The notes below the pieces were generated by a model. It worked only from the letters and a program-made list of their open reading frames with translations, searched no databases and was not told where the DNA came from. Both the position numbers and the translations under genes were made by a program. Of a stretch of 64,000 bases of DNA, positions 15,002-64,000 are shown piece by piece (the stretch's first letter is position 1; each line of letters starts with the position of its first letter). This DNA is from Microbotryum violaceum (taxonomy: Eukaryota): NCBI GenBank assembly GCA_001244265.2, contig CDLV01000011.1:992001-1056000 (forward strand), written 5' to 3'.

Positions 15002-16866
15002 CCAGTGGGAACCCGTTAAATTAACGGGAGGATCAAATTCAAAAAAAAAGCAGGATAATCGAACAGTCTACATGATCTCCGCGCAGAGGTTAAGAAAACA
15101 CCCTACGAAGTACAGCAAAGAAACAAATCCATTCATCCTACATTCATCGCCGAAACAGCCTGCATGTCGCTTGTTGCCGGATTTGGCTTCAAACACATGT
15201 GCAATGAGATCCGGACGGGTGCATGCTTTGTCATCCAGCCCCAGTGCAGCCTTGGTTTCCGGTGCTTCGGGGTCGTACGTCACCGTGATGAGCAGCGGAG
15301 GCTTTCCATGTTTGACAACGCACGCCATCGCATCCTGGTATCGCTGCGTGATGTCGCGATTTGGTTCGGGGTCAAGCCGTTGATGCCTTGGGTCGTGGTG
15401 AGGCGTAGGTTCTCTTGATGTAACCGGATGTGTTGAGTCAATCGGTCTTGACTTGGGAGTACATCCGTAATTCACGAACTCCAGGAAGGGACGTTGGGTG
15501 CAATGCGGGATTGAGAAGTGCTCGTCGCGTTTGGCAAGTAGTGCGCAAAGAATTGTGAACGCGAGACTTGCCACCTCGACCCCTTTACTTGACCTTCGTC
15601 CTAGGTGTTCAAAAGTTACTGTCAGTCTGTGCTTGCGCCTTAGACAGAATGGAACATCAGAGAAAGAGCCGAAGACGCGTACGTTCGCCATCACCATCCT
15701 CTTCGTCCCCTTCCTCGCCGTCTTCATCCTCATTGTCGCTGTCTTCGTCCTCCTCTTCGCCTCCGTCATCAAGACTGAGACCCGCAAGTACCTCGCGCGG
15801 TTGGACACCATTGTCGATCTGCTCTCGGTTTCTGGTGATTGGCAGCCCAGCTTGGCGAAACCCGCAAAGAGAAATGTTGGGGTGGAAGCCATCTTCCCCT
15901 GCAGGAAATAGTAGTGGCTACCGGAGAGGCAACGCAGACGGATGGAGCGAGCTGATGACTTGGTACTTGGGGCCGACCATCGGGACATCGATCACCGTGC
16001 ACCTGGAGAATACGGTCTTGAGGTCCACGATCTCCCATGTTGGTGTCGGAATCGCAGATAAGCATCGCCATTTCCGTGCTTGACGTAGGAAGGTTGTGGG
16101 TACGTCGGTCCCGGCCTGGCGGGAGGCAGAGGCGCAGGATCCACTCTTTGGCCGTATCCCAACCTGCGCGAGCTTTGGCCGATGCGAACTCCCTCACAAA
16201 GCGATTGCCGGTGCGCAGAATGGACTCAAGCTTGGTCAAAGTAGATCGTTGCATGCGACTGTCTGCGCCGTCGGGTCCAAGTCGAGTGTCGGTGGCCTCG
16301 GCCGGGTCGATCAGCCATGTTTGAGCAAAGGTTGGGCGTTGAGTCACGGCAGGGATCAGGGCGCCGAGTCGATGGTAGAGGCGACCAAACACGCGAAACA
16401 CAGGGGGTCCTAGCGTGCCCACTTGAGTTTGGTCCCAGAGGGCAGCGAGCGAAGTGAACGACAACGCGTTGTTGTACGACCGGGCATTCTCGCGGAATGC
16501 AACCGCTTATGTGTGGGTGGGTAGAACAATTCAGCATGGGGTCTACTGCAGACGAACGTTGTTGGACGGAGCAACTGACCGCTATCCGAGCCTTCAAGAA
16601 GCTGCCCATACTCGAGATTGGGCTGGGGAGGGGGAGGTAGCCGCACCTTGCCCTGCGAAAACGTGGGGCTTGAGGGGTTTGAGCGCGATTCGAGCCCGGC
16701 GCACTCGCCTTTGCGGAGGTGGTGGTGGGGCGAGCCCAGCGTCGAGTTGGCCATCGCGCTGACCACGCTGTCCGTTCTGCACAGCTGCACGGCGGGCTCG
16801 TATACGTGTCGCAATGCCAAGATCGGTTGAATTGTTGTCATGACGCGCGGGGGCTGATTCTGTTGA
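15002..16866 (-). mobile_element. Internally deleted, frameshifted Helitron (N-terminal and Rep motif 1 remnants, no helicase)
   Basis: 3' hairpin CCCGTTAA-T-TTAACGGG then CTGG|T; FRVFGRLYHRLGALIP, LLFPAGEDGFHP, YQDAMACVVKHGKP..ITVT, RPDLIAHVF; A|TC 5' end at 16866 or 16857. Confidence 0.9.
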
Positions 16867-35927: not shown

Positions 35928-38900
35928 TCACAGCACATATACAATTGACGAAGGCCGAACAAACAACCCCCGGCTCACCTCCATACTCTCGCCCCGAGAG
36001 TTGACACCCAGACTGCTACGCGGCCTGCTTCGAGTTGGTGCCTCGCGCGTGGCAAATGCAAGTTGATATTCCGCTTGCTCGCGTATCTCGGCGTCGCGTC
36101 GAGCCGTGGGCTCAGGGCATCGACGCAGATCGAAATAACGAAAGCCGTCACGAGAGCCATCGTTCCACTCGTCATTTGCCTCCACCTCCGCCGGTATGTC
36201 TCCCTCGGCAACCTCGACGCCGACCCAATGAGTGTCGGGGGTAGCCCATTCTACCGGGCCTATATATCGAACGACAGCCTTAATCTGTATCCGCCGCACG
36301 TCACTTTGGTTGATCGTTGCGATGCACGGGATGCCAGCCAGCAGGGTTGTGCCTCGAGGATTTTGATGGCGCTGAAAGGGCAGCTTCGTCCTAGCATCCC
36401 TGCTCGCACAAATAGCGAGACTGTCTTCATTGGTGATCCGATTCTGAATATATAAGTTGGCACTATGCTGGGGCGTTGCTTTTGACAAATGTAGGTGAGC
36501 CTCGCTGTCTGGTGAACTCTTTTTCGAGTTCAGTGCGGTGGGCCGGCTCGACGGCGCCCGCACGGCCGTCAGCGAGATGGCGGAAGTTGTACGTCTCGCC
36601 AGTTTCGGTGGGTATAGTGGCGAGATCCCGGTCGGCGGCTTTGAAGTTGACGTTGAGTCGGAAGTTTCACGTGAGGTTGCCGGGACTCCGACCGATTCGC
36701 ATCGAAGCGGAACAATTGTCGAGGGCGCACTCAACCCCTGAATCGCGGGAGGGTTCTTCGATGGACGATGGATGCGGCCTGAAGAGGTTGGGCTGGCCCT
36801 AGAGTCCACAGAGCCAGTCCTCGAACGAGTTTTTGCTGCGGTCGACACTTCAGAGGCCAGCGTGGGTAAGACGCCTGCCTCGCGGCGTCCGGCACGCACT
36901 GTAGTCGCACCATCGAAACTCGTGGAGACACGAGTTTCAGCTGTCCCTGGCCCAATCTCAGTGGAGGTGCTGCCCGCTGGTCCTCGTCGTCCAACAGGTA
37001 CTCGATGATGGGCTGCATTGGATGCAGAAGCCGACCTTACGATGCGAGAAGATGAGGACGCCGACCCTAGAGACCTGGCGTGGCGCGCAGCGGACGTGCG
37101 ATCAGAGAGACGTTCATCGCCTCTAGCGGCACTCCCAGGTGGGTCAATGTGGGTGGCGCGGCGGGGTACGTCTACGATCGGGAGTCCGATGTGTGCAGCC
37201 AAGTCGGTAGACCGTGCGCTTCTTGAGTCCAATGCTCTAAGCTGATTTTCGCCACTTGCCAGCTGCCACTGCGCATTTTCGTTGAGTACTAGTTTCGATG
37301 GAGGTCTTGCTATTGTGGGCGTTATGACGGAAGTGCGGATCGGTGGCCGCTTTGAAGCCGTGGGTTGATATAGCAGATCAGCCTCAGCTACGGAGATATC
37401 TGTTGGAGGAATAAAAAGAAGCGGGAGATGAGCGCCAGGCTGGCTACACTGTGACGACGTCAAGCGCTGAATTCACACTCACGATCAGCAAGTTCTTTAA
37501 GGCACCATGCTTGCAGCCTGGTGAATTCGCCGGTATCGCGAATCGACATCCAGCGGGTCTTGATGTATTTTGCGATCCCGTTTCGGGCGTCCTCCACCAA
37601 CACCTTGGCATCTATCAAGATCCCCTCCTCTCTGAGTAGAACCGAGCCGACCAGTGCTTGATATGTGGCACAAGCCCTGGATTCCGCAAGGCCTCGAACG
37701 ACGAGTTCTAGCAAATGTTCCAGAACATCGGCACTGAAACCCACGCCGTCAATTAGATCCACAAATGACTCCGAAGTAACTACAGCGGCCAGGTCTCGAC
37801 TGAGGACTTCGACAAGGTGTTCTTCAACGGCATCCAACATTGCGCGAATGTGATGGACCCAGGCATGGCGATTGGTCTCGATGCGTTTCCGAAGTTGTAG
37901 CGCTTGCTTGACAACAGATGTCGACGTTTCTGCGCTTATTCCGGAACACACTTGATCGAAGAGGGCTTTTTGAGAAGAGTGGTCAAGCGTACCGATGTAG
38001 GCGCTGTCCCAGACTTGTCCAAAGTGACCTGTGATGACCATGAGAGCGCCACGTGCCAGCCGTGCAGATTGCACGTCAGGCGCCAATGCAAATCGGTATA
38101 TTCTTGCAGCACGATTCGGTGTCATCATAGACTCGATAGAAACCTCGACTTGCTCTTGCAGAAGGTCCAGCCCAAGGAAGGCGGCGCCGCGCCAGATTTC
38201 GAGAGCCGTTGCGAGATCAAATTTGCGTGAGGAGAAGTGGAGTGTGCCGCTATAGACGTAGCCAAGGATGAACGTAAAAGAAGCAGACGAGAAGAGAGGC
38301 GAAGGGAGGGTGAGGATACAGGTCTGAGCATCACTGAATTCGCCGAGGAGGATGCAGGCGAAATAGGGCACGCGAGCCGCCAAGATAGCACGATGGGAAG
38401 CGAAAGACGATGCCGCATATCCGCCGTCATCGAGGACGATTGTTACATCCGCGTAAAGCTTGCTCCGCCAACAATACAGGAGATCCTCACGAAGCTTCGC
38501 GATGCCGGTCAGGCCCGGGACGGAGTCCTCTCGAATCGATTCGTGAAAGCCCTCGAACAAAACATGCACGCCTTCGGTGCCCTGCGTGCCGAGGTACAAC
38601 ACGTCGAGCCACGCTTCAAAGAGAGCTGGATCGGTGTCGGCAAGCATCAGACGCACGACATGGTCACTCGATTCGGCTATCAACGTCGCCGAAGATGTTG
38701 TGGCCGTCACTATCGATTCAAGACTAGCGGACGACGTGGATCGTAGGAAATGGGCGTCCCGTGCATCGTCGCGGGCGCTGGTACCAGTGTTGAAGGACGA
38801 AGCGACCGAGTCGGAGCAATGTAGTGCAGGCGAACACTGAATAAAGCGTTCTTGGAACGACCCTGGAGGAATAGTGGAGTACCTCTTCTTCGATCAGACC

Positions 38901-39335
38901 TACGATTCGAACCTTCAGCCGTGCGTGCACGTTGATCACTCCAGCCCCACGTGACCTTCTGGTCCTCCAGCGTCGACTGCACGCTGCCGAAGGCACGGCA
39001 GGCTCGCAGGGGAGGAAAGGGAGGGCTGGTAACCACACGCATTCGAGAAACTGACCTGATGAGCGACTGTAGACGATCGCCTTGTGAGCGTAGACGAGTA
39101 CTTCATCGGGACAGGAGCGGCCCGGCCGGGTTGGACCGTGCGCGGCCCAACACACGTCCCCGAAAAACCGTCGAGCTTCATGGCGCAGTTTCGAAAGGTC
39201 TGCCAGCCACTTCTGGCAGCTGGACTGCTCGGTCGAAGCCACGGTGACTGGAGTGAGAAGGGTCGTCCTTGGCGGTCCGAGTGTAGCAGTGGGCGTGAAG
39301 GTGAGCGGGGCCGGGGGCACTCGCGCGTAAGGCAA
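35928..39335 (-). CDS. BTB/POZ plus C-terminal CAP-Gly domain protein, multi-exon
   Basis: FGDVCW..YAHKAIVYSR; LYADVTIVL..FASHRAILAARVPYF; VVRYIGPV..WVGVEV..NDGSRDGFRYF; 5' end unresolved. Confidence 0.85.
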
Positions 39336-39461
39336 TGAGAGGCAGTCGGTAGCTGTCGAAGAGGCTGTCGAGAGCGTCGGGAGGCAACGTACTAGCCCAG
39401 ACTAGCGCACCCAGACCGACCCAGACACCACCGCCAGACACTCCCCGACATCGGGCCAGAC

Positions 39462-39709
39462 AGACCCGGGAAAGCTCATCGATCAGCCCAATGTGCGTCT
39501 CGGAGAGTTGTACTTTACGGGCCCCATTATGCCTTGTGATATGCTACATGACGTGAATTCTCACGGTAGAGTAACTTTTCCAACGCAAGCCGATAATCTG
39601 GTCTTACACCGGAATACGTACACCGCTTATATAGGGATATTCGGTGTACAAATCGGCCTAAAAACGGGGTTTTTCGAGACGCACCTTCGGCTGAGCTTTC
39701 CCGGGTCTT
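39462..39709. mobile_element. 248-bp MITE of the AGGACCC-type family with 8-bp TSD GGCCAGAC
   Basis: 17-bp TIR agacccgggaaagctca; TSD at 39454-39461 and 39710-39717. Confidence 0.9.
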
Positions 39710-39908
39710 GGCCAGACTGTGCCTGTCTCTACACTGTCTCTACCTGCCCGACGCTGGACTGCGCTCTCCCGCGCTTCAAGTCCGCTCGTGTCCACCACGC
39801 CACAGTTGGTGTTGAGGAGACTCGAGACGACCAAAAAGGCCTGTTTGAGTCATCCACTCCCAGCGAGCGCTGCTGTACATACGACCGCGTCACGCTGCGC
39901 CTCATTTG

Positions 39909-42900
39909 ATGGCTCGCCTACGTCCGATCGAGTCGACGCCTACGTCGACGACTGCCTTCGCAACCAGCGACGACATAACTCGAGCGCTTGCAACCAAGGA
40001 TGCCCCGTCGCTCATCAGTGGTCCGTTTTTGTTCTACGATAGGATGCCGATTCAGCTCGGTTGGATCAGCTACGAGCAGGGTGTACATCCGCTGTGGTTC
40101 GATTCGGTCTGTGAACTGACAGTTTGGACTTGTTCTCGCAGCTCTGGCGTCGATCCAGCAAAGCGCGCATGCGCTTGTCACCGCCGAAGCGCCTCCCGCG
40201 CTGCGGCAGCACCCGCTGCACGACTTCATGAACAAGTACCCAACAATAGATCCCATTTTCATGTCCTGGGATCTAGCTCACCGGGTGAGTCTGCGTTTGC
40301 AAGCCCGCGGGAGTTGTGGGGAGAAACTGCTCCTTCTGTGCCCCGTCAGTGTTGGCGTCGCAGCGCTGATTGAACTGTCTCTCACTTGCCTCTCCCTTTC
40401 ACAATAATGATTTATCTTCGCCCCAAAAGACAAACAACCCTTCGCTCACCAGCGCCGTCCTGAACTGCCTCGGATCACTCGTCCGCTTGGCCTCCCAGAA
40501 TGCGCAGCGCGGCGAGCCCGAGTTCGTGCGAAGATTACTTGCACAATATGCAGCACAGCTCCAACGAGCTTTGAATCCGGGCAGGAACGATACCACGGTG
40601 GCTGCACTCAAGCTCCTCAATGTCGTGGTCGCGTTTGACTCGGGCCGCTTTGCGCGCAGGGCTTTCGACGCTCTGCCTTGGACAAGCAAGGCCACGTCTC
40701 GGTTGTTCAAGACTCGTTTGCAGGACAATACTCGCGACCCTTTGCGCCGTCCCGACATTCGCACTCTTCTCGTTATGCTAGTTCTGTCGTTCTTATCGAT
40801 GAATGATGCTCGCCTTAAAGGCCAGGTGTTGGAGACTCGAGGATTGCTTTCGGGCATGATCAAGGGTCTTTCGGACGATCCACCTCCCGTCGTACATCAC
40901 GTCCTCGTCGCGTTCTACCGTGATGTCATTGTCGCCCGATCGGTGGGCCTTGGAATTCGACGTGCCCTTCTGGATGAAGCCAACCTGAAAGAGGTCAGTT
41001 ATGTGCTCCGACTCCATCTTCAAGTTCGCTGTTCCGAGTTGGCTGACGGCATCGCGTGAACACATCGAATTTCAGATTGTCAAATTGTATGACATCGTCG
41101 AGCGAAACGATGAATGGATAGAGTCCCACAACGGTTCTCCGACATCAGGCGTCCCTAGGCTCGGACGCACGGTGCACGCATTCCTGTCGGCCGTTGTCGG
41201 ATGGCTCGGAGACCAGATCGACGAAGCGCCTGCGCGATCTGCGGGAGCGCAGAGAACTCTCGGGACGCTACTCATTGCTCTGAAAGTGACGGAGGATGCG
41301 AGACAGCGCGACCTTGCCCTCCGCGTGCTGCAACGGGCGCCAAACCTGGTCGTGTCGTATTGGGCGAAGTTTCCGGCCTCGTTCGATCCTCGCCTGTCTT
41401 CGCGGTGGATATCCGCCATCACCTGGGCGACGCAGATCACATCTTTGCCCCTTCCACAAGGACTGTCCGCCGAGTTGACATTGCCGATAAGTTCCGCTCT
41501 GGTTGACTCCATCTGCCCGAGTGCGCTCAACCGGCCCTGGTTCACGAAGGCGATGCAGCAAAATGACCCGATGGTGGCGTATCTGAGCGCGACACTATTA
41601 CTTGCCATACTCCAAAAAGCGACTCGTGTGCTCATTCGCTTGGCCGAAATTGCGCGGCAGTGTGAAGAGACAGAGACGGTAGGTCATTGGGTTTCGCTGG
41701 CCAGAACCGTCCGGCTTCGTCTCCAAGCGATCGTGCCCGACCCTCAGATCATCATGGCGCTCAGCGCCGTACCATCCACGCCTGCCGCGCCCGCCCCGGC
41801 AACGTCGACTTCGCGGAAGAAGCTGAAACTCCAATCGGGATCGGGAGCAGCCGTCGAGACAACGGTCGAGAATGATCATGTGGACACGATCGCGCAGGTC
41901 GTTCTGAATCAGCAAAGGCACTTGCGCATTCACATCGCGTTGCGCCTGCTCTGGATGTACCATCGTGTTACCCCTCGATTTATTACAGCCCTGCGCTACG
42001 ACTTCGGAAAGCTGCTCCATCGACCTTGGTACACCTCAGGTTCGCCCGGCATCGAAACCGTCACATCCGGATACGCACTGCGTGTTGCGAGTCTTCACAC
42101 CACAGCTGTGGTTTGGGTCCGCCCCACAGAGGTTCTCAAGACAGTCTTGTCGCCGCTACTACAGCGGTTGCGGACGACTGCTTCCGAAGGGAATCGCGTG
42201 TTGCTCTTGATGATCCTCACCCGAGTTTTGAGGACACCCTTGCTCTTTGGCGACAACTTGGACGAAGCCAGTGATTGGCTCGAGGCCGTGATGTGGATTA
42301 CTCGCGACAGCGCACCAGCCGGTACCGACGCGGCTCTTGCCTTTTTCGAGGATTGCGTCCAAAAGGCATTGACATGGTCTTCCGCTGCGAGCACTGGACC
42401 TGAGCTGCGAGCGGCGGCGTCTCCTCTGCTGCGAGTTGTCCAAGGCAATCTCCGTCGAGAGCTCGAGTACTCTGCACGATCACCCGCGGAGTCCACACTG
42501 CGACTTGTGCGCTTCTTCTTCTTCAGCAAGCTTGGATCAATCGAATCGTTGACCGTGCTGAAGCAGGTTGTCGGCGGTCTGACTGCGTCGCTTGGGGAAG
42601 TGGAACTGCTGGCGGAGACAACGCTGCGGGTCTTAGAAGAGTGCCTCCTTGTGGTTCAAGGCAAGGTTGTCAGAACGAGGACCACTTGCATTGACGAGTC
42701 GCTTGCACATGATTTCTGCTCTGATGCCACATCGCTGCCGCCGCTCACTTTTGACATGTATCATCCAGCACTACAGAGGTCTGTCCGCATCTCGACCTTG
42801 CTTCCTCCAATGCAAGGCAAGTTTTCCTGACCCTTCACTCGTATTCACAGGGCTACGTGGTATATACCTACGTCACTGCTTATGCTCCACCTCTCTCCAC

Positions 42901-45900
42901 CTCTTATTCGGGACGCAGCTACTCTGAAGTTCACCTTGGCACGAGTGCGCGGTGCCCGAGCCTGGTTAGCTGCAGTCCGAGTGCTTTTGCTGCGAATTGC
43001 CGGCTCCGGGAACGGCGTGTTCGCTTGGATGGTCATTTCGATTTACGAAGATTGTCCAAGTCCTGTCCAACGAAATCGTATCCGGACTTTAGTCTCTGGC
43101 AGCGACGCTATCCTCAAAGTCCTTGCACGCAGCGAAGAGCCCGAACATCTCTCGGGTGAGTCCGCTGCCGAGACTTCCCTTGCTCATGCCGTTGAGAGCT
43201 GATACTGGGGTCGCCCCCCTCCCTCAGCGATGCTTCACCTTGTCCGTGTTCTTTTCTCTCCGAGCAATCGCAATGGTCGGCGCGCCGCAATGCCATATTG
43301 CCAGCTCATCCTCAGCAATGATGAAGCGAAATTGTCTCCCGGGGTGAGTATGTGCAACTACCCCGGACTTTGTATTGTGAGAGAACCCTTGCTGATGCAC
43401 AAGAGACCTTATTTCCACAAAAGTTGTTACTCACAAGTGGCCCATTAATGCCGTTCTTTGGTCAATCATCCCTGCTCCGCTTGACCGTGTCACTGCTACG
43501 TCATGTAGTCAACGATACGCTGTCGATGGATCAATGGACGCGTGCAACATTGGATGCTGCTTTGCATCAATGTAGTTTCGTACCTTCAGTGGCCGTCGTG
43601 AACGAATTGTGGGTTCAACACTTCGCAACATTGTGCTCGTTGGCACAGCTCTCCCATCCTGTCAAAGGATGCGAAGCCGTCTTGCTGCACGGTGCTGGCT
43701 TCTTCTCCAGTGACCGCAACAAAGCTTCCCAGATCAAGTCATTACTCGATCGTCATGCGGTCGACTGGACAGGAAACCTGCTGGCCACACTGGCCACAAA
43801 TCGCTCGTTCATGATCGTCCTGGTGCAATTGGTCTCTCGCTCCGAACCAGCGCGCGCGCTCTTCGAATCCTTCGTTGCCACGCAGAAACGCCTCGACCTA
43901 GCGTATGCTGCTCCCCTGAGCTCCATGGTCAGCACGCCCATCAAAGGGCCAGGTGTGGCCGACGCGTTGCGCAAGCTCATTGTCGAATGGACGAAGCACC
44001 TGGTCGCCGCCAACAACTCAACCCCGACAACAATAGATGAGGCTGCGTTCTTGGTGGGGACATACGCAGTACAAAGTCCCAACCTGACCCAATTGGTGGT
44101 CTTGATAGTGGAAGGTGCTCTACCACAATCTACAGACCAAGTTTTCAGTCATCGTCCAGTTCGGTTCCTTTCGCAACTTGCACAGCACATGCCAGCAGCG
44201 CAATCAGTGCTTGGTGATTGGGTCAACAATTCGTTCGAGGGGATCATTCGGTACACTATGGAACACAAAGACGACAAGGGTCACATCTGTGATTTGGTCA
44301 GCGAATTGGGTGAGTGCCCATGAACAACAGGTTTGCAGGTACTGTGCTAATCATGCGTGTTGGGGCACAGTGCGGACGCTCAAGTTGCATCGTACTATTG
44401 TCTGCAAGCAACATCTCTTCGATCCGCTCCTCACGGCGATCATCCACCGTCGACAGGATCAGAGCGACTACAGCGTGCTTGCAGCAATGCTTTGCAGCTT
44501 GAGTGACTGGAAGGTAGGCAAGCAGTGACCATCCAGGCACATTTGCTATTTTGGACATTGACATCGTTGGGAGTGTCTCTTTCTGCAGGATCAAGATGTT
44601 GCTCGCCATCTGAATGCACTGTTGGCAACTCCTGCTTTCCGATCGCAATCACATCACCGTGCAAGCGAGTCGAGTATTCGGCTCATTGCCGCGCTTGCCC
44701 GCGCTTCATGGACTGCCGCCGTATCTTGCCGACTTGTTGACCGACTCATGCCAATCTATGGGGCGACCACATCGGCCCAAGACGTGGTCATCCTTGAGAT
44801 CTTCCAACGACTCGAGCTGGAACACGCAGGATCAATCAATGCAGCATCAAGGAGCTGGTCGCCAGACACTGGCAATCGAATGTTGGACAAGAATCGCTGC
44901 GCGAGCCTGCACCATCTTGACCCACGCCTGATGCGCAACGCCTGGCTACAAGCATGCGGTTCAGCTCTTCCACATACCAGCGGGGTGGTGAATTTTCCCG
45001 CGTACGACCCAGGCTTTCTACTGCCTTTTGTCTCCCACACAATGGCGGAAGATGAACTCAAGGCCGCAGATTGGACAAACCTACTTGAATCTGGAGCCCT
45101 TGGTATTCCAATTGCTGCGCTTGCATCTCCTTCACCAAATATGCGTCAACTCGCTTCGTCTACGCTTCAAGCTGCACTGAGCAAGTCGCGGGCTTCCGTA
45201 TTTCCAGAAAGGGATGAGCTTGCCCTGGTGTTGCACATGTCGCGCCAGTGCATCTACCGAGTCAACGGCGAACCCGTCCCAGCTGTCATCTCTCTCTTCT
45301 TGTGCTGTTGTGTCCTTGCTCTAGGCACACCGGCTTCAACGCTTTATCCGGCTTTTATGCAATTCCTCTTGCAGCGCTCTCAAGTCGACCAACACGATGT
45401 ACCAATGTTTTATGCTACACTCTACTCGTCAAGTGCACTGCCCGAGGAAGAACGCAAATGGCTGGTCCTTTTTCTAGGTCACGGGCTTATGCGGGCACAG
45501 GTGAGTCTTGGTGTGATCATGCTGCACAAATTCATTTATGCTATGGTCTTTGCTGATCTGTCTTTTCCCATGACAAAAGGACTGGAGAATTCTGCGCCGA
45601 CGCCAGAGCTTTGAGCTCCTTGTCAGTCTGTTTGAATCAGCTCAGCATGATTCTTTCCTCAGACTGCACATCCTTCAGGTAGGCTGTTTGCTAGAGATGT
45701 CTGCAAGGAGATCGCGGGGGAAGATGACTGACTTGGCACATTTGACGCATATGCAGTTCTTCTTGTCTGGAGCCAAGATACCAAAAGTTGCCCGGGAACT
45801 TGTCAGACGCAATGGTTTGCTCTTTTGGATCACCACTGTTCCCTTAGTAGACAAGGAGGAACACTATTTGGCACTACAAATTCTGGGGAAACTCAATCTA

Positions 45901-49377: not shown

Positions 49378-50650
49378 CACGAGATTGCTCTCGAGCCTCA
49401 CTGGTTCCGAGTCCAAACAGAAAGGATCAAACGGTGTAATTCGCAGGCAAAGAAAGACTACTAAAAGGACTAAGGTCAAGAGGCGCCCGTGGCGCCGCGC
49501 GCAAGTAAGGCTTCGGCCGCTGAGGTTGTTGTGAGGCGTAAGCGGAGCGGTGCCTTACACTCACCCCTCCTTGAATCAATTCCCTTATCCGGGTTCTGAC
49601 GCAAACAATCGTTCGTCGTCGTCTTCTGAATCGCTTGAGATGCCTACAAAGGCGGTTGAATCACCGGTGTCCTCGTGCACTCGGATTGCGGCTACCATTC
49701 GAGGCCCGGGGGTAGATCCGGGGGGATCGCGACGAGGGGATGCAGTGTTGGGCTTGGAAGGGCAGTTTGAAGAGATGTGGCCTACCGTGTCGCATACGAA
49801 ACAGCGGCCTTCGAACATTGCCTTCTCCTTTGCTGCACCTTCCAACCTTGGTGTGCAAGGCCCCACAGCCTGAGTTGGTTCACCGCGTTCGTGATGTAAG
49901 TTGAGCCTCCGCATGCCTGTTGTTGCTTGCTCCAAGGTGATAGCGTCCCACATTGTCTGGAGATATGCCACAAGTGCATTAACGGAAAACTTGCCAAGCG
50001 CAAACAAGGGGGAGGCGGTCGCGCGGAGATACAGGAGCTCGTCGCATCGGTGGAGCAGTTGGCGCTTGAACAGTTCATCAGGGATGACTTGGGTGCCGTC
50101 GGAGGCCAATCCAGCTTGGCTGCGCTCTTGCGTCAATAGTGCAATGAATTCGTTGAACGTCCCGCTCTGTTGCGCGTTGAAAAAGGCGTGCTCCGCCGCC
50201 AAGCCGGTCTTCTCGCTGACGAATCGCGCCTTCACTTCCGCTGCAAAGTCGTCCCACGTTTTGAGCGCCTTCAACTTGTCGCGAGAATCAATGTACCAGT
50301 CCCCTCCTTCCCCTCCATCCGGCTGCCGGCCTCACGAATGAGGTGTACGGTCGCAATCTTGCCGTAGTTCCATTCGGCCGATTCGACCGCATCTTCGCAC
50401 CCTGCCAGCCAGCGCGCCACGTCCCTCGACTTGGAACCGCCTTCAACAACGGCATATCGAGCTTGACTCTTCATGCCGGGGTCTCCATGTGCAGGGGTGT
50501 ATCGCGGGAGTCGGGTGGCATTCTCCTGTTCTGTTCCGGTTCGATTCTGGGTTCTGTGGCGGGCACGGTGCTCGAGGCCGTGTTGCGGGGCTGGGCGGAG
50601 CGGGGCTGGGCGGGGGCAGGGGCCGGGGGGGTTCTGGGTTCTGGTTCTGG
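49378..50650 (-). mobile_element. Ty3/gypsy-like gag-only element with PPT and 3' LTR (49378-49559)
   Basis: TWDDFAAEVKARF and knuckle CFVCDTVGHISSNC; stop at 49585; PPT aaggaggggtgag then TGTAAGG; frameshift at ~50290. Confidence 0.8.
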
Positions 50651-53296
50651 TGTGATGAGTCCACTCTCAGCTCGGCAGAGGCGCCTCGGTCGTTACGCGA
50701 GCCCGCTAGCCCGCCCCCAGCGCTGGGGACTTAGACGCGCGCGACTGACTCAGCGCGCCAGCGCCGGGTGGATCCGTGCGCGTGCCCGCTAGGCCGCCCT
50801 CTGCGGTGGGGACTTAGACGCGCGCGACTGTCTTAGCGCGCTAGCAATTTCACCCGCGACTGGGCCTATCTCAGCGCGGGCCTCCTGTCTGTTCTTAGCT
50901 TCCTCCTCATCACTTCTGTTCGACTATCAACCCCTCCTGACAGTAGTGGTGATCGTCTTATAGGTACGCTGAAACTCATCACTTCTGTTCGACTATCAAC
51001 CCCTCCTGACAGTAGTGGTGATCGTCTTATAGGTTTTGAGCCCAACGAGCAACCAACTGCTCCTTGAGGGATTTTTCGAGCTCAACCACTCGCACCACAC
51101 ACGTCCCTCGCAGCATGGACAGCCCTCCCGCCGCACCCTCGCCGCCCAGGGATTCCAGCTCCCCTGAGCCCTCATTCAGCGCGCAAATCGCCACTCTCCA
51201 GGCGCAACTCGCCGCTCTGCAGGCCTCGCAGCCCCTAGCCGCTGCCGCTCCCACGCCCCCGGCCGTTGCAGCCACACCGGTCCACGCCACCACCGCATCC
51301 AAAGTCGTGTTTCCCAAACACGCTCGCCTTGACGGACCCAAATCTTTTACAAATTGGTTGCGTCAACTCCGTCTGACGCTCCCGAACCAGCTTCGGAGCT
51401 ACGTCCTCGACGGTGTCATCCCCGCTACCTGGACGGCCGAGCAGCTGCCCGCCCGTGACAACGCTGCCGCGAGATCATCGTTGGCTCTATTGACTCAGCC
51501 GACGTCTCGGCGGCCCTCGACGCCATCCCCAGCGACCAGCTGTCAGCTCCTCGCATTTTTGCGACTCTCAAGGCTTGTTTCGCACCGGACGATGCCACGC
51601 GCACCCTCGAACTCTTCGCCCGTCTTTGGGATTTCAAGAAGATGCCCGCTTCCGTCGAGGCATACGACACTTGGCTCCGCGAGTACATGTCGGTTGCACA
51701 AGAGATCCGTGATGCCAAAACGTCGCTCAACGACGTCCTCGCCACCCACGTCCTCACCATGGTTCCGTCCTGCCTCGACAGCTTCCGCCTGACCTTCACG
51801 GACGAGCAGCGAAGCCAACGCGAACTTCCCGAACTCACGGCGCTCACAGACCGCATCCGCATCCAACTTCGCTCGGCAGGACTTTCCACCTCGCCTTTGG
51901 CCATGCTCGCCACGCCATCGCTTTGTCCAGCCTGCCACGCCCCTGGTCACCGCCTTCGCAACTGCAAGTCGCGAGCCAAGCACCCCCCACTGGTCCTTGC
52001 CGCCGATGCCACAAAAAAGGCCACTGGGCCCTCGACTGCAAGCACCAAGGGGAGCAGAAGACCACCAGCGACAGCAACCACGACGACTCGGTCTCAACTG
52101 CGTCTCAACAGCCTAACATCGGCTATTTCGCCTCCTGCCTGTTTGCTCGCCGCCACCTCCCTGATGACGCCTTTGTGGTTGATTCGGGCGCCACGGCACA
52201 CATGGTTGCTGATCGGTCTCTGTTCACCACGTACCGCCGCACGGCGCAAACCAAAATAGGCGGCATTGCAGGCGGCATCACGGCCATTGGCATCGGTGAC
52301 GTGGCCTTCGTTGCCAAGTCCGGACATCCGATCACGCTGCATGGCGTCCTTCATACGCCTGGTCTCGCCGTCAACCTTCTATCCGTCTCTCGCCTCTGGG
52401 ACACCGACCGTGTTCGACTCGCCTTCACCAACGAAGGCATCGACATTGCAAAGGACGGTCAGGCCATTGCTCAAGGTCACAGGGTCGACGAGGGTCTCTA
52501 CCTCCTGGACGCGGATCACTCGAAATGTCAGCATCTTGCCTTACTCTCGCGTTCTGAGTCCACCGTGCCCCTGCTTACCCTCCATCGCTGCCTCGGCCAT
52601 CTCGCTCCATCCTCTATGCAGAAGATGATTGCCGCTGGTTTGTTGGACGGGTTTGGGGTCGGATATAGTGACAAAGACATAGAGCAGTTTGTTTGCAATG
52701 CTTGCCTTGGTTCCAAAGACCATCGCCTCCCTTTCCCTGACTCGGATTCGCATTCCTCCGAGAGACTCGGCCTCGTACACAGCGACATCCTGTCGTTTCC
52801 GACTCCGTCTTTGACCGGCAAGCGCTACCTTGTCACGTTACTCGACGACCACTCTCGCAAACTCTGGGCATACGCGATTGACCACAAAAGCGACGTCTTT
52901 CCAACCTTCAAGACTTGGCTCGCCGAGGTAGAATTGGAGACAAACGCACGCTTGAAGATCCTCCGCTCCGACAACGGTGGGGAGTATCGCTCCACCGCCT
53001 TCACGGAGTTCTGCAAGTCCAGGGGAATTCGCCGCCAGTACTCTATACCGTACACACCTCAACAAAATGGTCGCGCCGAACGTGTCAACCTTTCCATCGT
53101 CGAAGGTGTCCTCGCTCTCCTCGCCGATTCTCGTTTGCCCGCCACCTTTTGGGATGAGGCGGCCGCGTACTTTGTTTATTGCAAAAACAGGTGCTCACAC
53201 TCCGCTTTAGCCAAACAGACTCCAGAATCTGCTTGGAACGGCCAACGCACCACCGCCACCGCCCTCCACCCGTTCGGCTGCGCCACCTGGCTCACA
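50651..53296 (+). mobile_element. Ty1/copia element E1: 5' LTR 50651-51031, PBS, frameshifted gag-PR-integrase, truncated
   Basis: PBS ggttttgagccca; CCHC knuckles; [33 protein letters not shown]. Confidence 0.93.
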
Positions 53297-57694
<4,398 letters not shown>

Positions 57695-59567
57695 TATTCG
57701 ATCAACTCTACTACGTCAGCGATGTAGTTCTAGCCAAGAGTGATGAATAGGAAGCTAACAGTGTGAGAGCCACGCGCCCCAAGTTTCCCAGGCTCGCTCC
57801 GCGCGCCTAGCCCTGGGCCGATGCGCCCAGCTCGCTCCGCGTGCCTAAGCCCTGGGCCGGTGCACCTGACTCGATCCGCGCACCTAAGTCCTGAGCCGAG
57901 CGGAGTGGATTCCTCACACCCCCCCCCCCCCACGCGAACGCGAGGTAGACTTGAGCCGTGGGTGTCGCGTCCGGAGGCCCAGAGCATAGCAATGTACACC
58001 AAAAATCTTGGGACCTAGCGCCTTGGTGAATATGTCCGCAACCATGTTCGCTGTGCCGACGTGTGAGAGGGAGATATCGCCTTGGTGGACCATGTCGCGA
58101 ACAAAGTGCTTGCGGAGGCGTATGTGTCGGGTGCCAGAGGTGTGAACGGGGTCGTGAGCGACGGCGGCCGCGGCCTCGTTGTCGGTGAAAATGTGAGCCG
58201 CATCGACCGGGCGAACGTGGAGCTTGGAGAGGAGTTGTGTAAGGTAAATCGCTTCCTTACCAGCATGCGACAAGGCGAGGTGTTCGGCATCAGTGGTGGA
58301 ATCTGCTACCGAGTCTGACGCTTCAATGACCAAGAGACGACGGAGCCGGCCAAGTAAAAGACAAAGCCCATTGTGGAGATTGACGTGTCAATGCAGGCAC
58401 CCCAGTTTGCATCAGAATAGCCAACCACCCCTGTAATCTTGGCTGGACCGCAGGCGTAGAGTAGCTCATCACGGTACGTAGCGCGAAGGTAGCGAAGGAC
58501 GTGATTGACGGCGACCCAATGGTGGCGGCCGGGGTTGTTGGCGAACCGGGACAGGTACGAGACGGCGAAGGCAATGTCGGGGCGAGTGCCGAGTGAAATG
58601 TATAGGAGGGAGCCGATGGCTTGCAGGTACCACGACCGAATGCGTTCCGTTCCCTGACCCGGTACTGCCGTGAGCGAGAGGACGGGCGTCATTGGCACCG
58701 TAGCGCCGCGCGTTGTGGTGTCGAAGTGAAAGCGGGCGAGCACGTCCATGATGTAGCGCTCCTGAGATAAAGCAATGGAGCCATCTTCCAGGAGTCAAAT
58801 CTGGATGCCGAGGATGTATTCTGCAGGGCCGAGTCGTTTGACGCTGTATTGCTGTTCGAGGCTGGAGATGACACGCTCAATCTCATCGAGGGCGGGGCTG
58901 ACAATGAGGAGATCATCAACATATAATGCGATATAATGGGGCTGCTTCTGATAATCAATGCGAGAGTAAATGCAGTGATCAGTGCCCGTTGCCGTGTACC
59001 CAAGACTCCTGAGCGATGTGTCAATGTGGCAATTCCAGATGCGACCGGCCTGCTTAAGACCGTAGATCGAGCGCCGCAGCCAGAGAACCTGGTCGCTCGG
59101 GAAGTCAAAACCTCGTGGCGTCGTCATCCAGATGTCGTGATTGAGCTCGCCGTGAAGGTAAGCCTTGTCGATGTCAGCCTGATGAACGTGATAGCCGTTG
59201 CCAGCAGCAAGGGCGAGGAGGCAGCGAATGGAGGAGAAATGGGCGACGGGTGCGAACGTCTCCAAGAAGTCAATGCCGTCGCACTGGCGGTTACCCTGCG
59301 CAACAAGGCGTGCCTTCCTCCCTGTGATATCACCCTGTGCATTGCGCTTGGTCTTACAGACGAATTTGGAGGTGACGATGGTGGCGCCGGGGGTACCGAG
59401 GAACGAGGCTCGATGGTGAACACCTTGAAATTGTTGCGCATGGCGGTGAACTCGTCGGAGGCGGCTTGAGCCCAGAGGTTGTGCTCGTCGCTGGACATCG
59501 CTTCACGCCAGGTCTGAGGGTCGCTAGTGATCGATTTGACCGGCTCAATGGCTTCGAGGGTGGGGTC
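57695..59567 (-). mobile_element. Ty1/copia element E3: RT-RNase H, poly-G PPT, 3' LTR 57918-57695
   Basis: [44 protein letters not shown]. Confidence 0.93.
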
Positions 59568-60943
59568 TGTGAAGAGTCCACTCTCAGCTCGACAGAGGCG
59601 CCTGAGTTGTTGCGCGCACCCGCTAGCCCGCCCCCTTGCGGTGGGGACTTAGGCGCGCGCGACTGCCTCAGCGAGCAGGCGCCAGCGGACTTGGGCGCGC
59701 GCCCGCTAGGCCGCCCCCTTGAGGTGGCGACTTAGACGCGCGCAGCTGCCTCAGCGCCCTAGCAAGTTCACCCGCGGCTGGGCCTATCCCAGTGCGGGCC
59801 CCCTTTCTGTTTCTTAGCTTCCCTCTCACCACTTCTGTTCGACAATCAACCTCTCCTGACAGTAGTGGTGATCGTCTCATAGGTTATTCGCCATCGACCT
59901 ACCGCTGGCATGGACACGTCGTCGCCCTAACGACAGGTGCCCACCCAACAATCCCCGCCGAACAGCTCGCCGCACTTACGTCGCTGCTGTCGGGTCTCAC
60001 CACTGCCACATCCGCCACGTCGTCCGGCACCTCTCGCACCGCCTTTCCCAAGCACGCACGCTTGGATGGGCCCAAGACGTTTGCGAGCTGGACACGCCAG
60101 CTTCGCCTCTGCCTTGCGGACGACATCCGCTCATACGTCCTCGACGGGATCGTGCCCGCCGACTGGACACCTTCGCACCGCTCTGCCCGCGATGTCGTGG
60201 CACGTGAGCTCCTAGCGAATTCGATCGACTCAGCCGACGTCTCGGCAGTCCTTGACCAAATCCCTACCGCCGACCTCACAGCGCCCAAAATCTATTCGAC
60301 GCTGAAATCGCGGTATGCTCCGGATGACGCCACTCGCACGCTCGAGCTCTTCTCACGACTATGGAGTTTCCGGCCCATGCCCGGCACCGTTGGCGAATTC
60401 GACGGTTGGATCATGGAGTTCAAAGCCATTGCGCAAGAAATCATCGATACGAAGACGACTATCAATGATGTTCTTGCCACACTCCTCCTCGCCATTGCAC
60501 ACCCGTGCCTCGAGAGCTTCAAGGCGTCATTCACCGACGAACAGCGCACCCAACGATCTCTCCCTGCCATTGATTCGCTCGCCGACCGCATGCGTGTTCA
60601 ACTCCGGTCCACCAACGTCCCCAGCACCCAATCGGCCCTTCTTGCCTCGTCGTCGTCACGTCCTACCCGTCCCAAGTGTCTCGCCTGTTGCAGCCCTTTG
60701 CACCGTGTGGCGGAGTGCCCTGTGAGAGCGAAACACCCGCCGCCAGGACCCTGTCGCTCCTGCAAGCAGAATCACTGGTCTTTCGACTGCAAAAAGGCTC
60801 TCGAGAACGGCAAAAAGGCCAACACGGCGAACTCGACCGCCAACTCGCAACACCATGTCGGATGTCTCGCTACCGGCCTTCTCGCTCATCGTCGCCAGCT
60901 TTGCGCCAACTCCTTCGTCATTGACTCAGGCGCCACTTCGCAC
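59568..60943 (+). mobile_element. Ty1/copia element E4: 5' LTR 59568-59881 and gag up to the protease motif
   Basis: Near-identical to the E2 5' part; cut after IDSGATSH. Confidence 0.93.
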
Positions 60944-61346
60944 TATTCGATCAACTCTACTACGTCAGCGATGTAGTTATAGCCAAGAGTGATGAATCAT
61001 TACAACATACCTATTCGATCAACTCTACTACGTCAGCAATGTAGTTATAGCCAAGAGTGATGAATAGGAAGCTAACAACAAGAGAGCGCGCGCCTCACAT
61101 CCTCAGGCTGCGAACCTTGGGGCTGAGCCAATGGCCCAGGCTCGCCCTGCGCGCCTAAGTCCTGGGGCTGTGTGCGCCTGGCTCGCTCCGCGCGCCTAAG
61201 TCCTGAGCCAATGCGCCTGGCTTGTTCTGCGCGCCTAAGTCCTGGGCCGGTGCGCCAGGCGAGCGCGCGCCTAAGTCCTGGGCCGGTGCGCCAGGCTCGC
61301 TCTGTGCGCCTAAGTCCTGAGCCGAGCGGAGAGTGGATTCCTCACA
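60944..61346 (-). mobile_element. LTR of the E3 family with duplicated terminal segment
   Basis: tgtgaggaatcc...gatcgaata; gcgcctaagtcctg tandem repeats; no matching TSD. Confidence 0.88.
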
Positions 61347-61369
61347 GTAGCGTAAGATGTGCGCCACCG

Positions 61370-62826
61370 CTGCCCCGCACTCCCGGCCGCCCCGCCACGC
61401 AGACCAACGCCGCTACCTCAGCCAAAGTCGTGTTTCCCAAACACGCTCGCTTCGACGGTCCCAAATCGTTCACCAACTGGTTGCGTCAACTCCGTCTTGC
61501 ACTCCCGAATCAAGTCCGTGCTTACGTCCTCGAAGGTGTCGTTCCCGCTACTTGGACGGCCGATCAGCTTGCCGCCCGGGAACTCATCGTTGGCTCTATT
61601 GACTCCGCGGACGTCTCGGCCACGCTCGACGCCATTCCCAGTGACGATCTCTCAGCACCGCGCATCTTCACCGCTCTCAAGGCTCGCTTTGCACCGGACG
61701 ATGCTACCCGCACCCTCGAGTTGTTCGCCCGCCTTTGGGATTTCAGGAAGATGCCTGCCTCCGTCGAGGCATACAACACCTGGCTGCGCGAGTACATGTC
61801 CATCGTACAAGAAATTCGCGACGCCAAAACTTCGCTCAACGATGTACTCGCCACTCACGTGCTTGCCATGGTCCCATCGTGCCTCGACAGCTTCCGACTC
61901 ACGTTCACGGACGAGCAACGCAACCAACGCGACCTTCCCGAGCTGACAACGCTGACCGACCGCATTCGCGTCCAACTTCGTTCGGCGGGACTCTCCACCT
62001 CGCACTCGGCCATGCTCGCTACCGCCTCCCCATGCCCCGCCTGCCGCGCCCCCGGTCACCGCCTTCGTGACTGCACCTCACGCGCTCAACACCCCCCACC
62101 GGCCCCTGCCGTCGCTGCCACAAGAAGGGTCATTGGGCCCTCGACTGCAAACCGCGAGGCGACCAAAAACGAACCGGCGACGACAACCAGGACAACACAC
62201 CCTCATCGGTGGCTCAACAACCGAATGTCGGCTATTTCGCCTCCTGCCTGCTCGCTCGCCGCCATCTCCCGACCGACGCCTTCGTCGTCAACTCGGGCGC
62301 CACGACACACATGGTCGCCGATCGCTCGCTGTTCACGACTTATCGTCAGACGGCGCACACCAGGGTCGGCGGTATCGCAGGAGGCATCACGGCCATTGGC
62401 ATGGGGGACGTGGCGTTCATTACCAAGACCGGACACCCGATCACGTTGCGTGGCGTTCTTCACACGCCTGGCCTTCACGTCAACCTTCTCTCTGTCTCTC
62501 GCCTCTGCGACACCGACCGCGTTCGACTCGCCTTCACCAGCGACGGGATCGACATTGCCAAGGACGGCCAGGCCATCGCTCACGGGACTCGCGTCAACGA
62601 CGGTCTCTACCTTTTGGATGCGGACCACACCCAATGTCAGCAGCTTGCCTTGCTCTCACGTTCTGAGTCTCCCGTGCCCCTGCTTACCCTTCACCGCTGC
62701 CTCGGCCATCTTGCCCCATCCTCCATACAAAAGATGATTGCTGCAGGTTTGCTGGACGGTTTCGGGGCCGGGTACAGTGACAAAGACGTAGACGAGTTTG
62801 TTTGCAATGCTTGCCTTGGTTCCAAA
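61370..62826 (+). mobile_element. Ty1/copia gag-protease fragment E5 (E1-like)
   Basis: [45 protein letters not shown]. Confidence 0.9.
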
Positions 62827-62843
62827 TGTGATGATGTCACGCC

Positions 62844-64000
62844 TGCTCAAGCGGTGGTAAGTCTCTGATCAAAGGACCAAGGGAGACCAGACCAAGAAGT
62901 TGCTTGTTACACACCTGCTCAAGCACTACCGTAAGTTACCACATCTAGAGGGGTGAAAGATAATAGGAAGAGTAGTGCTCACCTGCTCAAGCGGTGGTAA
63001 GTCTCTGATCAAAGGACCAAGGGAGACCAGACCAAGAAGTTGCTTGAGCAGGAGAGAAACCAGAGAGGGGCCAGCTGGCTGGGCCTAAGTGCCCAGCCAG
63101 AGTCAGGCGCACGGACCTGGCCCAGAGTGGGAGAGCTAGAGTGGTGAAAAGTAGGCCAAAAGTGATCAAAATGAAGAGAGGAGGATGTTGAGGTAGATGC
63201 AAGATACAAGAAGGACATGAAGGAGATATTTGATCTCACACCCCCCCTACTTCGAGTATCAGGGAGCACAGATACCGAGTCGACTGCGGTGCCGAGCAAA
63301 GAGGTCGCGTGACAATGCTTTGGTGAAGATGTCCGCTGTCATCTCACCAGTGTTGATGTACTGGACGACAATATCGCCCATGGAAACCATATCCCGGACG
63401 AAGTGTTCGCGCAGGCGGATGTGCCGAGTCCGAGCATGAAATACCGGATTCTTGGTGAGAGCTTTGGCACCTTGGTTGTCGCCGTAGATGAGGACGGGCT
63501 TTGAAGACGAAAGGCCAAGCTCACCAAAGAGCTGACGCAGAAAGATTGCCTCCTTACCAGCGTGTGACAGTGCGAGGTACTCGGCGTCACAAGTGGAGTC
63601 GGCAACGCGCGATTGGAGCCGGGAGGACCATGAGACGGCAGCACCTGCATAGACAAAAGTGTAACCCATGGTCGACTTGGAAGAGAGGACGCATGCACCC
63701 CAGTTGCAGTCGGAGTAGCCCAAGAGCGGTGCCGGATCCCCACAAGTGTAGCGTAAGCCGTGAGGAAGAGTGCCAGCGATGTAACGGAAGGCGTGCTTGA
63801 CAGCTCCCCAGGCAGCAGCAGAAGGCGAGTGAGAGAAGCGAGCCAAGTAACCGACGGTGTAAGCCAGGTCGGGCTGAGTACCAGTGGATGCATACATGAG
63901 GGAGCCAATGGCTTGCAGGTACCGAGTGCGATCCGGAAAAGGGGTGGGCTGGAGCTCGACTTCAAGGCGGAGATCAGACTGCATGGGAGTCGCGACCGGA
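62844..64000 (-). mobile_element. Ty1/copia element E6: RNase H, PPT, 3' LTR 63240-62844
   Basis: [39 protein letters not shown] agtaggggggg then TGTGAG. Confidence 0.93.

Follow-up and report, generated by a model that had tools for sequence, protein, structure and literature searches.

Doubled long terminal repeat ends with intron-like anatomy in diverged copia retrotransposon families of Microbotryum violaceum

Doubled LTR end of element A

The window analyzed here is a stretch of 64,000 nucleotides (nt) from Microbotryum violaceum (contig CDLV01000011.1 of assembly GCA_001244265.2, positions 992,001 to 1,056,000 of the forward strand), and our subject is the 3' end of the long terminal repeats (LTRs) of the copia retrotransposons that it carries. 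An earlier sequence-only reading of this DNA had proposed a self-regenerating spliceosomal intron at these LTR ends. LTR1 (50651-51031, plus strand) is the 5' LTR of a degenerate copia element, element A; it has TGTGA...TTATA ends, and the gag ATG lies at 51115. Direct reading and BLAST revealed an exact 60-nt direct repeat at its end, in which copy 1 (50906-50965) and copy 2 (50975-51034) were identical at 60/60 positions and were separated by the 9-nt spacer ACGCTGAAA (50966-50974), which reads GGTACGCTGAAA when the preceding GGT is included (the next base is C). Tandem Repeats Finder described the same region (50906-51034) with a period of 69, 1.9 copies, 100% matches and a score of 258. 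The repeat comprises the last 126 nt of LTR1 and three bases beyond them; copy 1 terminates in ATAG|GT, which is the LTR-end sequence plus GGT, and copy 2 crosses the LTR end into the first bases of the primer-binding site (PBS). The doubling was therefore as exact as had been claimed, but its units measured 60 nt by direct reading and by Tandem Repeats Finder and not about 55 bp.

The position of the LTR end was set by another copy, the solo LTR3, whose 5-bp target duplication CAAAC delimits the LTRs of this family. In LTR1 the end corresponds to A 51031, and G 51032 is therefore the first base outside the LTR, in agreement with the earlier assignment of TA as the LTR end and of G as the first PBS base. 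The 3' end of the family is thus TA and not the usual CA. The PBS of element A, GGTTTTGAGCCC (51032-51043, plus strand), showed one mismatch to a 12-nt motif, which we take to be the Ty5-type PBS (anticodon stem-loop of initiator tRNA-Met). Matches of this quality (1-2 mismatches in 12) are not rare by chance, and the assignment was made from the position beside the LTR end. The window contained no tRNA genes, and no Rfam family was found in 50000-62000.

The domain order of Ty1/copia elements (zf-CCHC, Pol_BBD, gag_pre-integrs and rve) was present in 51713-53569. Additionally, Pol_BBD was followed by rve in a further element, element B, a YVDD motif lay after LTR3, and an RVT_2 domain was found at 58798-59502 on the minus strand.

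Comparison with the other LTRs of the window

BLAST of LTR1 against the window revealed four LTRs of families A and B (LTR1 to LTR4). LTR2 (53297-53611, plus strand) is the 5' LTR of element B and is followed by the PBS GGTTATTTGCCC, with two mismatches to the 12-nt motif, and LTR4 (59568-59881, plus strand) is the 5' LTR of a related element, B'. Both contained a single copy joined to the PBS exactly as in the predicted spliced form, as the sequence-only reading had stated for the 5' LTRs at 53297 and 59568. LTR3 (56987-57366, plus strand) lies within the reverse transcriptase of element B and has the short inverted ends (TGTGA...TCATA) and the 5-bp target duplication (CAAAC at 56982-56986 and 57367-57371) that characterize an LTR element. 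It contained two copies (copy 1, 57244-57297; copy 2, 57313-57366), and its spacer opens with GGTACGCTGAAATAG at 57298. The base after LTR3 is C, and the AG acceptor is consequently absent there. LTR3 and LTR4 were 97.1% identical, with 303/312 identical positions outside the extra copy. Of 24 sequencing runs, all available as contigs and none recorded as RNA, four were aligned to 50400-60399 at 90% likeness: two DNA-like runs (X1 and X5) and two guessed to be RNA (X17 and X19). The empty site of LTR3 was seen in contigs from three runs.

A third family, family C, with a doubled end that the sequence-only reading had not mentioned, was found on the minus strand from a 77-nt segment that the repeat finder reported in three copies. 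LTR C1 (60944-61346, minus strand) contained copy 1 at 61065-61011, the spacer GTATGTTGTAATG at 61010-60998 and copy 2 at 60997-60943, with a period of 68 and, by eye, one mismatch in 55 between the copies; two ATGs lie inside the spacer. LTR C2 (57695-57918, minus strand) has a single copy and is the 3' LTR of a copia element on the minus strand. Thirteen G residues in a row (57919-57931, minus strand) directly upstream of C2 occupied the place where a polypurine tract would sit. C1 and C2 were 82.0% identical and differed in copy number, and the family C LTRs shared 53-57% identity with those of families A and B. Three X19 contigs extended the family C LTR end (57694) into GGTTATAAGCCC on the element strand, with an agreement of 0.65; this sequence has a PBS-like start of the type seen in A and B.

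In all, two-copy ends were present in 3/6 LTRs of families A, B and C in the window and one-copy ends in the other 3/6. As evident from the pairs of close relatives (LTR3 with LTR4, and C1 with C2), the one-copy LTRs corresponded to the precise loss of one repeat and the spacer, which together measure 68-69 nt.

Concerted evolution of the two copies

We found that the two copies of an LTR resembled each other much more closely than they resembled the units of other families. Over the shared core, copy 1 and copy 2 agreed at 55/55 positions in LTR1, 51/54 in LTR3 and 48/49 in C1, i.e. 94-100% within an LTR, whereas units of families A and B agreed at 50-51/55 and units of A or B and of C at 23-29 of 48-51 positions, so that the divergence between families reaches about 50%. 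LTR1 and LTR3 differed at three sites at which both copies carried the state of their own LTR, which bears out the earlier suggestion that the copies are homogenized within each element. The three differences between the copies of LTR3 looked private upon comparison with LTR4.

The spacers of the two-copy LTRs ranged from 9 to 15 nt. The A/B form (GGTACGCTGAAAT in LTR3) and the C form (GGTATGTTGTAAT in C1) agreed at 10/13 positions; without GGT, the agreement was 7/10, for which the binomial chance is about 0.004. GGT followed copy 1 in 3/3 two-copy LTRs and also follows the LTR at the PBS, and the spacer start GGTAYG resembles the PBS start GGTTAT minus one base. In contrast to these shared features, the 5' edge of the repeated tract varied by lineage, being CTCATCAC in family A, A(T/C)CAC in LTR3 and ATTCATCAC in family C; such differing edges are what repeated events ending at different points would produce. 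The feature itself is real, non-random and common to diverged families. Since the spacers are homologous and the copies within an LTR are alike despite the divergence of the families, the doubling is an old one, and its copies have evolved in concert. Most simply, the doubling would represent one old event that was inherited by the lineages A, B and C and whose copies have been homogenized many times since.

We favor, with a probability of roughly one half, an old duplication of the R-U5 end and the PBS start that has been collapsed to one copy repeatedly in each lineage, and homogenized, by template switching of the reverse transcriptase and whose anatomy is that of a duplication-born intron. 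In this reading, the terminal 55-60 nt of the LTR would have been doubled head to tail on the leader, which consists of U5 and the PBS start. We place the doubling there because GGT, with which the PBS begins, comes directly after copy 1, and a border between LTR and PBS exists only on the leader (that of the RNA or of the 5' LTR); a doubling on the leader would enter both progeny LTRs because minus-strand synthesis starts at the PBS downstream of it. Template switches between the copies would then occur during minus-strand strong-stop synthesis and the first strand transfer. If this transfer took place prematurely or out of register, one, two or three copies would result, and a later collapse would mix the copies. 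Direct repeats in retroviral genomes are described as being frequently deleted by template switching, and more so if they are longer or more similar (PMC3187697). Homogenization needs one copy to overwrite the other with the spacer kept, and for this the template-switch route would make only one assumption that is itself unproven, namely that both copies lie within the terminal redundancy.

The same LTR ends could have been shaped at the DNA level only, with slippage or unequal crossing-over changing the copy number and gene conversion after integration homogenizing the copies. Loss of one repeat by recombination would yield the identical short form, and homogenization after insertion could account for the 60/60 match in LTR1, which was retained in an otherwise degenerate element. 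However, the same architecture with a homologous spacer was found in dispersed copies of three lineages, which argues for inheritance via replication and not for changes arising locus by locus, and the repeat crosses the border between LTR and PBS, which suggests that it arose on the leader. Gene conversion between repeats of 55-60 nt is also expected to be rare. We therefore regard purely DNA-level change as very improbable and retain template switching as the preferred source of homogenization. The short form itself is not discriminating, as it could arise equally from template switching, from reverse transcription of spliced RNA or from DNA recombination; the caution in the sequence-only reading that the short form alone is no proof of splicing was well placed.

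The spacer could not be traced to another part of the element: the motif was found only at the three spacers, and the four other matches had two mismatches each, which is within chance. A 42-nt tandem repeat at 12155-12240 (2 copies, 90% matches) contains CAGGTRCTGAAATGG, and we judged this likeness to the spacer to be a coincidence; the repeat sits at the 3' end of an unrelated 863-codon open frame on the minus strand without a Pfam match. A conserved hairpin in the unit found no support, since none of its 13 predicted pairs showed a compensatory change. The fold of the two-copy leader had a z of -2.5, from which we drew no conclusion.

Intron-like anatomy of the two-copy unit

The stretch from the end of copy 1 to the end of copy 2 carried the marks of a short intron. 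In family A, the candidate 69-nt intron (50964-51032, plus strand) opens with GTACGC, the donor form of families A and B, within AG|GTACGC (50962-50969), contains CTGAC at 51006-51010 and closes with TAG at 51030-51032, and all landmarks named by the sequence-only reading were thus in place. The candidate 68-nt intron of family C (60943-61010, minus strand) opens with GTATGT, contains CTGAC at 60968-60964 and closes with TAG. The A of the CTGAC branch motif precedes the last base of the candidate by 22-23 nt, and the acceptor AG is formed by the last A of the LTR and the first PBS base. In terms of GT...AG ends, branch motif and length, both candidates agreed with short fungal introns, and the solo LTR3 did not; frame-joining candidates from two host genes were too few and too uncertain to yield a host intron consensus. 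The GT, the branch motif and the AG were kept in a family only about 55% identical, so that one of the refuting outcomes named beforehand, loss of these marks across family members, was not seen. As in duplication-born introns, tandem copies each ended in AGGT and removal restored the unduplicated sequence; the spacer of 9-15 nt is extra.

The frequency of such marks by chance was estimated from dinucleotide shuffles of the unit, which were duplicated likewise in 20000 trials per family. A strict rule, which called for GT with R at +3 and G at +5, for YAG, and for CTRAY positioned 10-40 nt from the end, was satisfied by 68/20000 shuffled duplications for family A and 93/20000 for family C, i.e. 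0.3-0.5%; under a loose rule, the counts were 742/20000 and 601/20000, respectively.

Among the contig matches listed for the four runs, neither of the joints expected from splicing (50963/51033 and 57298/57368) was present; the contigs break at the repeat (51005) and are uninformative on splicing. X1 contigs ran from the end of the family C unit, via the reverse complement of the C spacer, into the start of the unit again, and more two-copy C junctions therefore exist in X1 DNA. One X1 contig joined B-type units by AAATAG only (57297/57244), without GGTACGCTG and hence without a GT donor. In one X17 contig, GCTGAAATAG was found immediately before a unit starting with ACCACT. The differences between the window and the contigs were mostly transitions (in X1, A>G 100, T>C 91, C>T 63 and G>A 58, with 9-21 for each transversion). 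A metagenome scan with a degenerate junction pattern returned six loci, all of them unrelated, low in GC and without the repeat; viral contigs yielded neither a match to the pattern nor a relative of the element A polyprotein.

These marks raise the alternative of a working intron in the 5' untranslated region that does not regenerate. It would be spliced from the RNA that is translated and so bring the benefit that introns have for expression, while unspliced packaged RNA would carry the intron on; one-copy LTRs would derive from occasional reverse transcription of spliced RNA, and homogenization would be a rarer side effect of template switching. The agreement of donor, CTGAC, TAG|G and the length of 68-69 nt in two families about 55% identical speaks for this, as do the rarity of such marks in the shuffles and the identity of the one-copy forms with the spliced product. 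Splicing would also remove the two upstream ATGs of the family C spacer, and selection on an intron would explain why the two-copy state persists. Functional introns occur in the LTR retrotransposons Ogre and EVADE (PMC12786077), and a duplication can create a working intron in one step (PMC3265369). The general claim that introns raise mRNA accumulation in basidiomycetes found support for Cryptococcus (PMC3744415), where mRNA accumulation in Cryptococcus neoformans is reported to drop greatly on intron removal.

Against a working intron, the AGGT is present owing to the LTR end and the PBS, and the CTGAC and TAG are also found in copy 1 and in the one-copy LTRs; all signals except GT thus occur where no intron is at issue, and none of them was shaped for splicing. 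The GT itself belongs to the GGT that the spacer has in common with the PBS start. Its conservation should be read with caution, as two lineages give little power and A and C are not independent. Furthermore, the X1 variant lacks the donor, and a working intron alone leaves unexplained why exon 1 has remained identical to the 3' portion of the intron. On balance, a working intron as the whole explanation appears rather unlikely to us. In the reading that we prefer, the marks follow from the duplication: because AG|GT closes the piece that was doubled, the segment that opens with the GT behind copy 1 and closes with the terminal AG of copy 2 bears all the sequence marks of a short fungal intron. 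Splicing of the two-copy unit would therefore restore the single-copy leader. Some splicing of transcripts from the 5' LTR is likely and perhaps the reason that the doubling is tolerated, although it is unnecessary for the observations. Taking all readings together, we estimate that splicing of the unit at an appreciable level is slightly less probable than its absence.

Persistence of the two-copy state

Retroelements replicate via RNA and are expected to lose introns. The sequence-only reading had met this difficulty by proposing that the intron of the 5' LTR is spliced and that the 3' LTR is read into and polyadenylated in copy 2. Strong-stop cDNA from the spliced leader would land on copy 2 at the 3' end of the RNA and extend through the spacer and copy 1, and every cycle would rebuild a two-copy LTR in which copy 1 overwrites copy 2. 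Such a cycle would explain, in one step, the persistence of the doubling and the near identity of the copies at insertion. A lineage-specific 5' edge of the tract would be expected if the edge marks the joining of the cDNA end, and the acceptor G indeed comes from the PBS and is missing after the solo LTR3.

The proposal, however, needs four conditions jointly, namely splicing, transcription that begins before copy 1, polyadenylation inside copy 2 and a landing preference for copy 2. Copy 1 offers the same sequence 69 nt upstream, where cleavage or landing would be at least as likely and would give many one-copy progeny. No element with both LTRs was present in the 64-kb window, and a contrast between 5' and 3' LTRs was therefore unsupported there; the two-copy LTRs comprised a 5' LTR (LTR1), a solo LTR (LTR3) and an LTR of ambiguous status (C1). 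Moreover, all element copies in the window had broken reading frames, and one variant contig had no donor. Self-regeneration in this form therefore seems improbable.

Persistence nevertheless weighs against the template-switching reading as well, and several other points do so too. Collapse loses the spacer irreversibly, yet the two-copy state persists in three lineages across about 45% LTR divergence, an outcome more in keeping with selection or regeneration than with a neutral repeat. The rarity of the intron-like reading in shuffled duplications (68 and 93 of 20000) hints that spliceability matters. The presence of both copies in the RNA is assumed. Finally, three-copy LTRs, which would be intermediates of the model, were found in 0/6 LTRs of the window; contigs assembled from 31-nt words cannot count repeats of 55-60 nt. 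With these points taken into account, an old leader duplication maintained in concert by template switching is still the explanation that we prefer.

Surrounding transposon nest and host genes

The LTRs described above lie in a nest of degenerate copia fragments that occupies 50651-64000. Element A, which retains its 5' LTR and the region from gag to integrase, is interrupted at 53297 by element B. Element B adjoins the minus-strand element with the 3' LTR C2 and the RVT_2 domain (58798-59502), which is itself cut at 59568 by B'. B' resembles B (98% over 300 nt) and extends to 60943, where it meets LTR C1. From about 61347 there follows another A-like stretch from gag to integrase, which was 81-83% like A over the gag stretches compared. 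Another LTR-like insertion (62826-63100), which begins with TGTGATGATG, interrupts the A-like integrase region and carries an exact 65-nt repeat (62842-62906 and 62982-63046) at a spacing of 140 nt.

Tandem repeats were also present on the U3 side of the LTRs. In families A and B these had a period of 83 nt and about 80% identity (50666-50845), and in family C the periods were 39 and 75 nt, with more units in C1 than in C2 (57787-57899 and 61123-61324).

Beside the nest, host genes at 35931-45611 included frames with CAP-Gly and BTB domains on the minus strand and a ribosome-biogenesis gene of the URB1/Npa1 type on the plus strand; the Atlas neighbors of the URB1-like gene were eukaryotic, mostly fungal and mainly labeled Ascomycota (few records). 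Additionally, a Helitron_like_N domain (E = 3.4e-10) was found in an open frame at 15071-15991 on the minus strand.

Significance and comparison with known systems

The unit described here is a stretch with all the sequence marks of an intron in the R-U5 end of an LTR; it has outlasted the divergence of two families or more, and its body is kept identical to the preceding exon. Should splicing of the unit take place, intron birth by duplication would have a natural and long-lived example here, and the element would be a model for how splicing is reconciled with replication. Without splicing, the unit still documents cleanly, in nature, the choice of register at the first strand transfer, leading to concerted evolution within an LTR. 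Should the self-regenerating cycle hold, the element would gain splicing without losing the intron, with exon 1 and the intron body rewritten to identity in each cycle. No description of an intron inside a retrotransposon LTR was found in the titles and abstract openings of the literature searched, from which subscription journals were mostly outside.

Intron birth by tandem duplication is reportedly exemplified by the potato RdRp. The doubled LTR end has much in common with intron birth by tandem AGGT duplication, the Rogers model, as presented by Hellsten et al. 2011 (PMC3265369): the copies stand head to tail with AG|GT ends, and removal restores the original sequence. In contrast to that model, the duplication here lies in the noncoding R-U5 end of an LTR and not in a host exon, includes a spacer of 9-15 nt, and is old with copies that are still alike, and the intron is a candidate.

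The second comparison is with retroviral template switching, in which direct repeats and the precise loss of one repeat together with the intervening stretch are described (PMC3187697), as seen here between LTR3 and LTR4. Unlike the retroviral repeats, those of the present LTRs are short (55-60 nt), lie at the site of the first strand transfer, and persist in the two-copy state across families; they are known from sequence alone. With respect to priming, the PBS starts with GGTT, and the 12-nt motif was matched with one mismatch in A and two in B, which resembles Ty5 and Drosophila copia, elements described as primed by a half initiator tRNA-Met (PMC5371799).

LTR retrotransposons are generally without introns, Ogre and EVADE being exceptions with introns in the internal region (PMC12786077). 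Foamy viruses have their major splice donor within the LTR, ahead of the poly(A) signal, where bound U1 small nuclear ribonucleoprotein silences the 5' poly(A) site (PMC3694450). The likeness to the present LTRs is that a retroelement carries a splice signal, which in foamy viruses, being a donor inside the LTR, occurs at both ends of the RNA, and we speculate that the donor beside the end of copy 1 could act as the foamy-virus donor does. In Ogre, EVADE and foamy viruses, however, the introns are internal or extend beyond the LTR, whereas here the donor, the branch motif and the acceptor minus its last base all lie inside the LTR, and the body of the candidate intron repeats the exon that precedes it.

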